Virus record (IMG/VR): IMGVR_UViG_3300048598_000507
Span: 1 to 37,057 of that record
Strand: one strand, 5' to 3'
DNA length: 37,057 nucleotides
Source: a virus
Lineage: Duplodnaviria > Caudoviricetes
Translations under genes and position numbers: made by a program
In this document: one piece after another, positions 5,385 through 34,550 of the stretch
Position numbering within the stretch: position 1 is the stretch's first letter
How the letters are laid out: every line of letters begins with the position of its first letter
The notes under the pieces: generated by a model
The model's database searches: none
What the model was told of the DNA's origin: nothing
The model's input: only the letters and a program-made list of their open reading frames with translations

Positions 5385-5710
5385 GCGGCATCACCCCCGT
5401 ACAGCTGGTCGAGAAGCTCGCCGTCGAGGCCGGCGCTCGTGTACCAGCGGATGAAGGCGTCGCGCGGGATGATGTAGCGGCCGCCCTTGTAGGTGCCGTT
5501 CGGCTGCGGCGCTCCCCCGCGATGAATGCAGGGGACGTGCCGGCGCATGCCCTCGAGGTCGCCGAGGATCCGTGCGGCGTCGAACTGCCGGCAGGAGGCG
5601 TAGACGCTCCCGGTGGAGATGTGGAGCAGCCTGGCCACCTCCTTCTTGGTGACCGGGTCAGAGAGCGTCTGCTCGAGGCGCTCGGTGGTGGTGGGAGCGG
5701 AGACAGCCAT
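5381..5710 (-). CDS. Xis/HTH_17-like DNA-binding protein
   Basis: VTKKEVARLLHISTGSVY...GGRYIIPRDAFIRW. Confidence 0.75.
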   Translation of the reverse strand: MAVSAPTTTERLEQTLSDPVTKKEVARLLHISTGSVYASCRQFDAARILGDLEGMRRHVPCIHRGGAPQPNGTYKGGRYIIPRDAFIRWYTSAGLDGELLDQLYGGDAA

Positions 5711-6861
5711 CAGGCTGCTCCCCGCTCAACCTTGTGGGACTCGAGATAGGCGAGCACATCGGCAAGGCGCGTCTGCGGAATCTCCTCGACGCCGGCGACG
5801 CCGATCTCTGCCTGGAGCCACTCGAGGAGCTGCGGCTCCTCGACGCCGTGGATCGTCGCCTGCGTGAAGACCCTGTTGACGTCGCGCCGCGCGATCGGCT
5901 TCGCCAGCTCTCGGGCCTCTGCCTGAGCGGCGAGGTCGGCGGCCATCTGCGACGGACTGCGCGTCTCCTTCGCTCGCTGCGCAGGCGCGTCGCTTGGGCC
6001 CTGAGAGGACTGCGGGCCCTCCTGGACGGCGGCCGAACCATCGTCCGGCCCCGCGGCCTCCTGCGAGCGCTCAGCGGCCTCGCGCGCCGCGGCGGCGTTC
6101 TCCTCGGCCGCCTGCTTCATGGCGCGAAAGAGTTGGACACCGATCGCGCGCGGCATCTCCGGGCCCGGGCCTTCGTACAGCAGGGCGCCGGCGTTGGCGA
6201 CCACGTCGTCCTCAGAGAAGCCGAAGTCAGCGGCCGAGGAGAGGAGGTTCGCCCAACCATCGTCGCCGAGCGTCTGCACCTCCGTCGCGGTTCCTTCGAT
6301 GACCTCGCCGTCGCTGATCCGCTCGGCCTCGTCTTGGTCGTAGATGCCGGAGAGGCCGAAGGCGATGCGGCCGGTCTGGTTGATGCCCTTCCACTCGAGC
6401 ATGCGCTTCGTGGTGTCGTTCCAGGGGCCGGTGTTGCGGTACATCTCGTCGATGTACTCGCGGTGCACCGTCGGGTGGTCTGCGTGGCTCTTGTGGTGGA
6501 TCGTGACCTCGACCCATTCAGGGCACCGCTTCGCCTGGGGAGCCGGCTGGACCATCTCATCGGACCAGCGGATGTCCATGCCGGCGAAGTCGGGGTGCTC
6601 ACGGATGAGCTTCAGCCACCCGTCGATGGGCACCAGCGGGACGATGCCGCCGCCCTTCTTCGGGAAGGCGTAGATCTCGCGCATGAAGGGGTCGAGGTCG
6701 TACTTGTTGGCGACCGCGACGAGAGCCACGAACTCAGCCGGGCTCGCGCCCTTGAACGCGGTCTGCATGAGCGTCCGCTCAAGCTCCGCCGGCTCTACGG
6801 CGACGCGCTGCGCCATGAGAGCGAGCGCGGTGCCTGGCCGCTGTCCGTTACCCGCGGGCAT
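5710..6861 (-). CDS. bet: RecT/Red-beta single-strand annealing protein
   Basis: ANKYDLDPFMREIYAFPKKGGGIVPLVPIDGW, GPW...KRML, AFGLSGIYDQDEAERI. Confidence 0.9.
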   Translation of the reverse strand: MPAGNGQRPGTALALMAQRVAVEPAELERTLMQTAFKGASPAEFVALVAVANKYDLDPFMREIYAFPKKGGGIVPLVPIDGWLKLIREHPDFAGMDIRWSDEMVQPAPQAKRCPEWVEVTIHHKSHADHPTVHREYIDEMYRNTGPWNDTTKRMLEWKGINQTGRIAFGLSGIYDQDEAERISDGEVIEGTATEVQTLGDDGWANLLSSAADFGFSEDDVVANAGALLYEGPGPEMPRAIGVQLFRAMKQAAEENAAAAREAAERSQEAAGPDDGSAAVQEGPQSSQGPSDAPAQRAKETRSPSQMAADLAAQAEARELAKPIARRDVNRVFTQATIHGVEEPQLLEWLQAEIGVAGVEEIPQTRLADVLAYLESHKVERGAA

Positions 6862-9258: not shown

Positions 9259-9465
9259 TCAGTCATTACCATCCGCTTCGGACGGTCCGTCGAACACGGC
9301 ATGCAGGTCGGCAGGGTCGATCAGGATCCGGCCGCCAGAGGTCCGTGTCGCCCGCACGGCCTCCTTGGCGACCCAGCGTCGCACCGTTTCCGGATGGACG
9401 CGGAGATGCCACTCGCGCTCGATGTACGCGGCGGCTTCTCTCGGGCTCAGGCGATCTTCAGACAC
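9259..9465 (-). CDS. Xis/MerR-like HTH protein, first gene after the SOS box
   Basis: LSPREAAAY...HPETVRRW...TSGGRILI; GTG start with an AGGAGG RBS. Confidence 0.8.
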   Translation of the reverse strand: MSEDRLSPREAAAYIEREWHLRVHPETVRRWVAKEAVRATRTSGGRILIDPADLHAVFDGPSEADGND

Positions 9466-9550
9466 GCGCTCCTCCTGGGCCGGTATCACGCCCCGGCCGC
9501 GGCTTCCTCGTGGTTGCGCCCGATGCAGGTGGCCCCTGGACTCAGAGCGG

Positions 9551-9582
9551 ACACGAACATGTGTTCGTGTACGTGCATAGTA
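9551..9582 (-). promoter_or_regulatory. LexA (SOS) box just downstream of a TACTAT -10 element
   Basis: CGAAC-ATGT-GTTCG at 9554-9567 (8-bp arms 9551-9558 and 9563-9570); TACTAT at 9582-9577 on the minus strand. Confidence 0.8.
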
Positions 9583-9588
9583 GCGGGC

Positions 9589-9906
9589 TCAGCTGACGGA
9601 ATGAGAAGCCTTCGAGGCGCGCGGCTTGAACCAGAGCACGTAGAAGCCGTTGGCAGTCGCGTAGACGGCGCCGATGAAGGCGAAGACCTGGGCCGCGGTC
9701 AGGGTGCCCCAGGTGGAGACGAGACCGAGCACGTCGCCGGCGAGCCAGCTGGTGGCAAGACCGACGGCGATCGAGAGGGCGACGGAGAGGATCCACTTCG
9801 CGCGGGCACTCCAGCCCGAGCCCTTGATGAACTCGACCAGGCGGCTGGCGACGCCGCCGGCGAGCAGGATCATGGCGACGAGAGTGATGGCTTCGACGAT
9901 GTTCAC
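9589..9906 (-). CDS. Putative holin (about 3 TM helices, 105 aa)
   Basis: GTG start with an AAGGAG RBS; hydrophobic helices, LVEFIK motif and basic C-terminus. Confidence 0.7.
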   Translation of the reverse strand: MNIVEAITLVAMILLAGGVASRLVEFIKGSGWSARAKWILSVALSIAVGLATSWLAGDVLGLVSTWGTLTAAQVFAFIGAVYATANGFYVLWFKPRASKASHSVS

Positions 9907-10145
9907 GCTGCGCTCCTTTGTGCGATGGGTCGCGCGAGCGGGGCGCCGGCGCCGCATCTGTGCCGGCCACCACCGGCAGCCGAGGCCTGCTCCCCGCTCG
10001 CGCTCGGGACGCACGACCCGACACAGCGCAGCGAGGAGCGAGAAGGAGCCAAGCAGATGGGCGTCTGCGAAGACGGGCCGTCGCCGAAGGGGAGCGGCGA
10101 CGTAGGACTCCTCGGACCTGCGCTGCGTCGGGGCGTGCATGACGC
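9907..10145 (-). ncRNA. Candidate structured RNA or holin leader
   Basis: Nested stems of 21 bp (one G-U, one mismatch), 7, 8 and 5 bp, plus a second domain with 12- and 6-bp stems; has its own promoter. Confidence 0.6.
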
Positions 10146-10150
10146 TGGGG

Positions 10151-10192
10151 AGGGTAGCGAGGGAGAGTGCGGGGGGCTGAATAATCTTGGCC
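10151..10192 (-). promoter_or_regulatory. Conserved phage promoter motif, copy 1
   Basis: GGCCAAGATTATTCAG-N20-TACCCT; matches the copy at 34509-34550. Confidence 0.75.
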
Positions 10193-16880: not shown

Positions 16881-17576
16881 TCAGGCGGCCCTCTGGCTGC
16901 GCCGCCAGCGCATCATCTTCGCCCACCAGGACGGCCGCCGCTTCGGCACCGGGATCTCGATGCGGTCGTCACTCCGCTCCGTGTCGACGCGCTTCCCGGA
17001 CCCCTGGTCACGCAGGCGCTCGATGTAGGGCACGAGGCCGTGGTTCCACCAGCCGGCGCGGTGCGGCTTGTGCATGCGCGGCACGGTGATGCTGTCCTTG
17101 GTCAGCTCGATCCGCGCCGGCTCCTTGGGAGCGCCGCCGGTCACCTTGGCGAACGGGTAGTACTTGCCGGGGCAAGCAGTCGAGTTGCCCGGCATCTCGC
17201 TGTGCCGCTTGTCGGCCTTGCCCACGTTCGGCCGCTTGTGGAGCCAGTCGCGCAGCTCCTGCAGGGCCCGCAGCTGCTTGGCCGGCATCGGGTTGTTCTG
17301 CTCGTAGCGGCCTTCCGCGCAGACCCCGACCCAGTCGTTGTGATCCAGGCAGTGCGCCCCACGCGTGCCGAGCGGCCGGCCCACGTGCACCTCGCCATTC
17401 AGGCGCACGTAGAAGTGGTAGGCGATGCCGAGGTCCGGGGGACTCAGGCGCTGGTGATAGGCGTGGATGGCCTCAGGGCTCCCGTAGCCGTCTGAGTGGT
17501 GCCAGACGACGCCCGGGTGGTAACTCACCTTGGTGAGTGCCCCGAGCCAGTGCCAGGCGTGCTTGATGAGCTTCAT
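16881..17576 (-). CDS. Endolysin, N-acetylmuramoyl-L-alanine amidase (Amidase_2/PGRP fold)
   Basis: WHHS, IAYHF, GAH, RH...TACPG Zn-ligand motifs; AGGAGG RBS. Confidence 0.9.
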   Translation of the reverse strand: MKLIKHAWHWLGALTKVSYHPGVVWHHSDGYGSPEAIHAYHQRLSPPDLGIAYHFYVRLNGEVHVGRPLGTRGAHCLDHNDWVGVCAEGRYEQNNPMPAKQLRALQELRDWLHKRPNVGKADKRHSEMPGNSTACPGKYYPFAKVTGGAPKEPARIELTKDSITVPRMHKPHRAGWWNHGLVPYIERLRDQGSGKRVDTERSDDRIEIPVPKRRPSWWAKMMRWRRSQRAA

Positions 17577-17586
17577 GGTGGTCCTC

Positions 17587-17841
17587 CTAGCGGACGAGAG
17601 CGATGATCGAGACGGTGAGCGTCGGCAGCCCAACGATGAGGCCCGCGACGATGGACGAGGTGAGCGCGCGGCGGCCGCGAGAGGCTGAGTCGATCTCGCT
17701 CTTGATGTCATCGAGCTTGCGGAAGATCGTCTCCTGCCGCTCGTCCATGCGGGCGACCTGGACGCGCAGGCCCTCGGACCCGTTGCCATTCACGTCGTGG
17801 TCGAGCTCGCGCACCATGGCGCAGGGGCACTCGTCGGGCAT
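17587..17841 (-). CDS. XhlA-like lysis membrane protein
   Basis: Coiled coil plus C-terminal TM, directly upstream of the endolysin. Confidence 0.65.
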   Translation of the reverse strand: MPDECPCAMVRELDHDVNGNGSEGLRVQVARMDERQETIFRKLDDIKSEIDSASRGRRALTSSIVAGLIVGLPTLTVSIIALVR

Positions 17842-34124: not shown

Positions 34125-34502
34125 TCAGGATGACCGACGACCCCGGCGCCGGGCGCGGCCATTTCGGACCGCACGCTGGCCGCGGTACTCGTAGGTGCCG
34201 TCGTGGCGGCCGATGATGCGGTGGCCGTGGCGACGGAAGCGGCGCACATGCACCTGGACGCAGCGCCAGGCGATCAGGCCGTAGGGCTCGACGCCCAGCT
34301 CGCGGTAGACGTTGACCGGTCGGCGCCGGTTCGACTTCAGAAGCTCGAGGAGGCGGCTGGCGAAGGTCGGGTCGTGGCGGGGGTCACAGGCGCAGCGGGC
34401 CCGCTGGCAGGTGCTGCAGAAGAGGTCGAAGCCGTGATCGTGGGCGAGGGGGGTGCCGCAGTCGCGGCAGCGGTGGTCGGTCTGTGAGGCGGTCTGGTGC
34501 AC
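34125..34502 (-). CDS. Zn-ribbon plus winged-HTH-like protein, probably translated from a leaderless mRNA
   Basis: CRDC...CSTC, RRHG...TY; GTG lies 6 nt after a TACGCT -10 and has no SD. Confidence 0.7.
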   Translation of the reverse strand: MHQTASQTDHRCRDCGTPLAHDHGFDLFCSTCQRARCACDPRHDPTFASRLLELLKSNRRRPVNVYRELGVEPYGLIAWRCVQVHVRRFRRHGHRIIGRHDGTYEYRGQRAVRNGRARRRGRRSS

Positions 34503-34508
34503 GGCGCC

Positions 34509-34550
34509 AGCGTAGGGCGCCGCCGCTGTGAGACCTGAATAATCTTGACC
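34509..34550 (-). promoter_or_regulatory. Conserved phage promoter motif, copy 2 (head of the late operon)
   Basis: GGTCAAGATTATTCAG-N20-TACGCT. Confidence 0.75.

Follow-up and report, generated by a model that had tools for sequence, protein, structure and literature searches.

The window analysed here, the whole of a 37-kb provirus record (37,057 nucleotides), encodes on its minus strand a folded RNA of 130 nt, D1 (10009–10140), which is very probably a real and conserved phage RNA, likely made late, and without a match to any known family. In many copies it is followed by a second hairpin, D2 (9932–10003; core of 60 nt, 9938–9997); the two are separate modules, D2 being optional. Coordinates below refer to the minus strand of the window unless another locus is named. 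The window reads as integrase, methyltransferase, terminase, portal, head, tail, an amidase endolysin at 16881 and cargo (MmeI-like, RDD), followed by the folded RNA, the gene for a membrane protein of 105 aa, a pair of small HTH genes, and genes for recombination and replication. In this order, the integrase falls between early and late genes, and the defence-type cargo lies just upstream of the promoter of the RNA, where it varies in every relative. Two close relatives occur in genomes titled Thermoleophilia, and the titles of these genomes point to a host of the same class for the window.

Fold and conservation of D1 and D2

D1 consists of a 21-bp closing stem, a 7-bp stem that includes GAGGAG, hairpin A, a linker, hairpin B and a pyrimidine-rich 3' junction strand (10040–10050), which contains the anti-SD-like GCUCCUU singled out by the initial annotation. 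Loop A (10086–10095), a predicted antisense seed, carries a run of 4–6 C in every D1 copy; hairpin B (10053–10068) is variable in stem sequence, with a mostly C-rich loop of 3–5 C (not C-rich in L043 and L216); and the conserved linker CCCGUC (10072–10077) persists even in L002, a variant that has lost 48 inner bases and kept the stem, one C-rich loop and the linker. D2 has an invariant CUCGGCU in its 12 copies. On the minus strand, the helices proposed from the letters alone pair at 20 of 21 positions of the long stem (one G-U, one C-U mismatch), 7/7 of the 7-bp stem, 8/8 of the 8-bp hairpin and 12/12 of the D2 stem. The proposed 5-bp hairpin (10062–10066/10071–10075) is complementary at all five positions, but is absent from the minimum free energy and centroid structures, which use 10064–10068/10053–10057 instead, and it would take up the conserved linker. 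As the initial annotation had supposed, the element folds better than shuffled sequence (-136 kcal/mol, z -3.83, none of 200 shuffles as good; z -2.61 for its plus strand), while the D2 core of the window taken alone does not (z -1.10, 24/150).

Homologs were gathered via the membrane protein, DNA patterns and a covariance model, which yielded 16 distinct D1 and 12 D2 copies in related prophages, all hosts seen being Thermoleophilia; of 89 genomes from the host family, the covariance model had matches in four. These counts leave out L007, L026 and duplicates as partial or identical loci. D1 folds with z at or below -3.7 in 13 of the 14 copies tested (the exception being L027, +0.5), and two copies found after model building, and thus held out, gave -9.45 and -5.15. 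In a plain MAFFT alignment, 9 of the 35 pairs of D1 have changes at both positions, compared with a shuffled mean of 3.8 (3/500), and in the closing stem together with D2, 96.5% of cells pair (0/500 shuffles), with both-side changes in 4 of 43 pairs (52/500), both controls ignoring relatedness. Covariation in homologs, named beforehand as a check, is seen as compensatory changes that preserve pairs, at the level of shuffle controls blind to relatedness. The in-frame ORF upstream, the coding explanation envisaged by the same annotation, lacks protein-type conservation: measured from its first ATG it falls in frames 0, 1 and 2 in 3, 4 and 5 of 12 loci, with lengths of 52–187 codons, and a protein-coding uORF was rejected, as no frame is kept across these loci. 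Palindromic DNA operators were likewise rejected, both palindromes being broken in the window and in L216 with pairing retained. D1 folds equally well on the opposite strand, its wobbles (25 G-U versus 16 A-C cells) favouring the minus strand weakly, so its strand assignment rests on the promoter; those of D2 favour the minus strand (36 G-U versus 2 A-C cells).

The RNA had been called undescribed, and this holds in Rfam, where no relevant match was obtained at the gathering threshold or at E 10. GenBank phages returned one 32-nt chance match only; DNA pattern scans gave mostly chance matches (119 and 25 loci), with no new D1 among them; and a pattern scan of 401 genomes of the class gave four matches, of which two were copies already in hand and two did not resemble the element on inspection. 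None of the papers listed by literature searches was seen to describe the RNA. A pair of sequence strings and three record identifiers were unmatched in four supplements of a survey of ten thousand phage RNA candidates (PMC10690425), among whose remaining candidates it may stand. One copy, L219 (G043), lies with its promoter amid non-phage genes as a remnant or domesticated copy, its hairpin A lengthened to 16 bp.

Three complementarities between the domains had been put forward as alternative pairings. All three are present where they were reported, but their number is within chance (three perfect cross-domain 7-mers versus 2.05 expected, p 0.33; 11 6-mers versus 6.35, p 0.10), and the CAUCUG/CAGAUG pairing does not generalize, CAGAUG occurring in only one of 12 D2 copies, that of the window. 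Multimerisation after the fashion of phi29 pRNA had also been suggested. That RNA has two mutually complementary loops and serves a phi29-type motor without a two-subunit terminase. The likeness is limited to the two-domain outline, namely a long stem, a junction, a second domain and a similar size, whereas loops A and B of D1 are both C-rich and cannot pair together, D2 is optional, and the phage encodes a terminase large subunit and a portal for terminase-type packaging, which makes a packaging RNA of this kind exceedingly improbable.

Promoter, module arrangement and the putative holin

The initial annotation placed the start of the element right behind a conserved phage promoter; the promoter stands, but the RNA start predicted from its spacing is 10140 and not 10145. 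The upstream box of this predicted late promoter is a 12-mer (10177–10188) with the core TATTCA, fixed at 20–21 nt before the -10 hexamer in D1 loci (TACCCT, 10151–10156, in the window), and in the copies listed a further 7–10 bases lead to ATG/GTG ahead of D1. The 12-mer occurs twice in the window against 0.01 expected, the second promoter copy (34500–34546) preceding a leaderless 125-codon ORF that heads the terminase operon, with no D1 behind it. The same motif is likewise found before D1 and the terminase operon in G003; in G186 the upstream motif is a different one, and is itself repeated ahead of the terminase operon. Because the promoter motif of D1 recurs before the terminase operon, D1 is likely a late RNA, and we infer that both promoters are late and activator-dependent. 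Two CxxC proteins are candidate late activators, one leaderless and heading the late operon (34125–34502), the other encoded by the final gene of the early set (1–468); no family was found for either. In the distant relatives G186 and G133, the same place is occupied by a hairpin shorter than D1, with a single C-rich loop on a long stem (z -1.2 and -3.8 in 125-base windows), and given these values and the weak covariance-model matches (E 0.33 and 1), homology to D1 is not shown.

Could D1 act on the transcribing polymerase itself? The put RNA is an antiterminator that acts on RNA polymerase, and D1 is always promoter-proximal. However, the long terminase operon lies behind the same promoter without D1, and no terminator was found downstream of D1, be it one to read through or one that would free the RNA, so such a role is very improbable. 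In two unrelated copies, the promoter and the first 20–25 bases of the RNA are duplicated around an insert of 0.7–1 kb (L033:4677 and 5728; L243:10521 and 11189), which possibly marks a hotspot of cargo capture.

D1, D2 and the holin gene are contiguous in 11 of the 16 copies, four of these with a truncated holin. D1 does not adjoin D2 in the other five, and in some of these it is a tRNA or a transglycosylase-like gene that comes next, or the holin is missing: D2 is absent from L043, L034, L010 and L219, and in L166 the gene behind D1 is transglycosylase-like, D2 being found 1.4 kb further on before another gene. As D1 is present without an adjacent D2 or holin, it belongs to the promoter and not to the holin. 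The D2 of L166 (2494–2558, minus strand) lies inside a predicted 280-codon ORF that links a Cys-rich portion to the gene downstream, which has an SD of its own. In L025, L027, L028 and L029, the holin retains about 37 residues, to which a tail is fused that is presumably akin to the C-terminus of a type I restriction subunit, HTH1 is missing, and D1 and D2 are intact.

In L010, a tRNA-Met starts within a few bases of the D1 stem, in the place of D2. A tRNA-Met(CAT) belongs to the late unit of the RNA at L010:3302–3376 and L243:11443–11517, a tRNA-Met shares the unit in G186, and the window has none. Alignment of D2 with the two tRNA-Met gave z-scores of 0.6–3.4, compared with -0.2 to 2.7 for a control tRNA-Ile, and a tRNA origin of D2 is a lead only. 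CC directly follows the stem in 13/16 copies and CCA in 6/16, a tRNA-like NCC check that was given no weight. The tRNA in the slot of D2, the start of the 20–23-bp helix within 0–2 nt of the predicted 5' end in almost every copy, and its survival in L002 would also suit a structural leader whose terminal stem protects the late message, with D1 and D2 as processing sites in keeping with the habits of RNase III and RNase P, and with no antisense loops. We regard this as unlikely, since it leaves the C-runs, the CCCGUC linker, the covariation of loop A with an SD described below and the C-rich loop of the distant type unexplained.

The 105-aa membrane protein (9589–9906; SD at 9912–9918) has three hydrophobic segments. 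Its description as an isolated holin is right as to its position, apart from the lysin and behind its own promoter, but its identity comes from context, as no curated holin family matched it in Pfam or PHROG, nor, in Pfam, any of 52 distant homologs. The phrog_1299 holin matched weakly in 2 of 19 relatives (E 0.005–0.009), and the Atlas placed the protein at 0.88 in a cluster in which 15% of members carry Phage_holin_5_2, a lead only. Upstream of six homologs tested are three amidases, one weak SLT and two genes without a match, so that a small multi-helix membrane protein beside a lysin is found among homologs, the window copy not being beside its lysin. The protein is likely a holin, with a predicted lytic function. 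An 84-aa protein directly before the amidase (17587–17841), with one C-terminal hydrophobic segment, is a possible second lysis factor.

That the RNA is a switch timing holin translation, its pyrimidine strands and loop A rearranging with D2 and the holin SD so as to delay the holin, was proposed in the initial annotation, and it is poorly supported by the comparison of loci, the anti-SD not covarying with the holin site. The contiguity of D1, D2 and holin and the distance of the latter from the endolysin speak for it, as do energies in the window: -4.8 kcal/mol for the junction strand with the holin SD, and -8.3 kcal/mol for loop A on the nascent D2 strand (-3.3 once D2 has folded). In L216 there is moreover a 9-bp match to its own SD (top 0.4% of windows), and in two loci, the window and L216, loop A pairs best with the D2 strand of its own locus (p 0.027 and 0.25 in two settings), a pairing that may be real. 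Against this, five single-stranded segments had no preference for the RBS of their own first gene (14 loci, p 0.16–0.91), a longer segment reaching p 0.02–0.03 in 2/9 settings and 0.09–0.18 with one locus per clade; the holin RBS outscores other windows in L216 and L002 but not in the remaining 11 of the 13 loci; the holin SD is mostly unpaired in the ensemble of the window; and in L010, L166 and L219 what follows D1 is a tRNA or a gene other than the holin. A holin timer acting in cis is thus improbable, to much the same degree as the structural leader.

Loop A and the early operon

A LexA-type SOS box, CGAAC-N4-GTTCG (9554–9567, the only exact match in the window), lies behind the holin stop codon, just past a predicted -10 (9577–9582), and is present in 9 of the 11 loci that reach HTH1 (half a box in L043, none in L010). 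The box fits the LexA motif described for Streptomyces (10.1101/2022.03.28.486056). No CI-like repressor was found among 59 and 27 ORFs scanned. This absence, together with the box before HTH1, leads us to infer that host LexA holds the early operon off, and the phage family is likely held in this way. LexA-type boxes at the early promoter were also noted in L040, L181, L185, L187, L189, L216, L006, L008, L243, L245, L014 and L035.

The first gene of this operon, HTH1 (9259–9465), encodes an excisionase-like protein (Pfam HTH_17, E 8e-7), and its leader (9467–9498), the predicted target of loop A, comprises a conserved hairpin with a G-rich loop (9478–9498) and then the SD (9467–9477). Loop A and this SD change together, as judged by eye: GCUCC/GGAGC in the window, CAC/GUG in L003 and L008, GUCCCC/GGGGAC in L010 and UUCCCC/GGGGAA in L034. 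The preference of loop A for its own HTH1 SD gave permutation p-values of 0.0027 and 0.0001 in 10 of the 16 copies (L002 and L219 being without loop A or HTH1, and L025, L027, L028 and L029 without HTH1), 0.016–0.039 and 0.003–0.004 with one of each twin pair, and 0.0047 with accessibility. These values are those of a post hoc idea, formed by eye after the holin tests had failed, among some 40 pairing tests and on about four independent changes, and without the four loci that prompted it they are 0.10 and 0.017. Controls of loop A against HTH2 or the first gene gave p 0.55–0.80, and loop B has no cognate preference (p 0.65 and 0.97).

The predicted pairing has a net energy of -6.4 kcal/mol in the window, and is weak in four of the 10 loci (L006, L033, L043 and the held-out L216, -0.8 kcal/mol). 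With windows fitted to the geometry of HTH1, its leader ranks 1/48, 2/45, 7/47, 4/37, 3/46, 2/50, 1/15, 3/5, 1/3 and 1/4 among gene starts; with accessibility the ranks are 3/47, 12/40, 13/44, 2/36, 7/36, 8/43 and 12/17, and a generic anti-SD probe does equally well, loop A presumably resembling the 3' tail of 16S rRNA. Enrichment of early over late genes (p 0.004 and 0.001) drops to 0.13 with accessibility, and in two distant relatives HTH1 ranked 43/66 and 12/15, without a match. HTH3 was rejected as a target: its raw duplex ranks are 6/48, 1/45, 1/47, 3/46 and 1/19, but the cognate p is 0.08–0.13 and its RBS is buried, in all five loci, in a hairpin of 11–15 bp with the start codon in the loop (5690–5730 in the window; L042, L043, L033 and L223), which likely serves translational coupling to the upstream gene for an annealing protein. 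In the window only, a 13-base stretch is common to the 5' strand of D2 (9997–9987 region) and the HTH3 RBS (5727–5715).

The reading that we favour on this evidence, tentatively and at a little short of even confidence, is that D1 is an antisense RNA of the 6C/c4 kind, whose C-rich loop would act on the SDs of early genes, HTH1 first, and damp the early operon. Several C-rich segments exposed in D1 would also suit an action on the host, either as a 6C-like repressor of mRNAs with G-rich RBSs or as a decoy for a protein that binds C-rich RNA such as Rho. 6C represses many host genes, and its C-rich loops have also been proposed as termination structures (PMC6486639). A host-directed role, although compatible with the antisense reading, is quite improbable, the sole covariation found being with a phage gene.

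Known systems and the proposed circuit

Several described RNAs share parts of this design. The 6C RNA of Actinobacteria (Mycobacterium B11), from a similarly GC-rich Gram-positive background, also has two hairpins whose loops are C-rich and bind G-rich RBSs without a chaperone (PMC6486639), and the loops of D1 are predicted to repress such RBSs as those of 6C do. Nevertheless, D1 is unmatched by the Rfam 6C model even at E 10, and differs by its 20–23-bp closing stem and internal SD-like strand. While 6C is a stand-alone chromosomal sRNA with a poly(U) end, D1 is prophage-borne (one remnant lying amid non-phage genes), stands behind a phage promoter and leads a longer transcript without poly(U) end or terminator. 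The two stem-loops of 6C carry runs of about six C; in D1, loop A has 4–6 C and loop B 3–5 C. The c4 antisense RNA of phages P1 and P7 also has a closing stem and two hairpins, as in the three-stem junction of D1, and is cut from a longer transcript, one loop covering an RBS (PMC5320573; PMC2864571 also bears on the mechanistic likeness). D1 has no Rfam C4 match, is 130 versus about 77 nt long, and has a promoter matching that of morphogenesis genes, which argues for late expression; c4 serves lysogen immunity. The loops of c4 pair with a bipartite target; in D1, loop A covaries with the HTH1 SD (p 0.0001–0.003), and a pairing of the second loop is not supported (p 0.65–0.97). The RNase P processing of c4 has a possible counterpart in L010, where a tRNA follows D1.

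The CI RNA of satellite P4 and IsrK of Gifsy-1 are promoter-proximal structured RNAs with complementary sites downstream in the transcript (PMC4825925); here, in contrast, a separate promoter with an SOS box serves the early operon, and neither a seqA-like upstream site nor a termination site was found. GIL01, a temperate phage repressed by host LexA, similarly keeps its lytic genes behind SOS boxes, but it is of an unrelated type and uses the protein gp7, with no RNA regulator mentioned in the abstract on it (PMC4551915). By analogy, D1 would work like 6C and c4 and would resemble P4 CI and IsrK in layout, while being a member of none.

In the antisense model, host LexA would hold the early operon off until induction, after which late transcription would make D1 from its likely activator-dependent promoter. 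D1 would then be freed from the holin transcript, or act within it; in L010, RNase P would release it from the following tRNA-Met, for which D2 may be a stand-in signal. Loop A would cover the HTH1 Shine-Dalgarno, giving negative feedback on the early operon, and might in addition capture the D2 strand as it emerges, with an effect on the holin. The fuller picture is more doubtful, if still somewhat likelier than the holin timer or the structural leader: a repressor-less phage family would rely on host LexA and a D1 released in tRNA style, whose loop would shut off the first SOS-induced gene and gate the holin via D2, a remodelled tRNA stand-in, as an RNA clock from early to late.

A late-made RNA braking an SOS-controlled early operon would be a circuit unlike c4 and CI, which hold lysogeny, and would come from the phages of an actinobacterial class that has hardly been studied. 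Natural swaps (D2 present or absent, a tRNA in its place, the 48-nt deletion and the one-loop type) and a defined pair of seed and target make it testable by reporter assays in Actinobacteria that are grown in the laboratory. Should the target prove wrong, D1 is still an RNA family with covarying pairs that Rfam 15 lacks.
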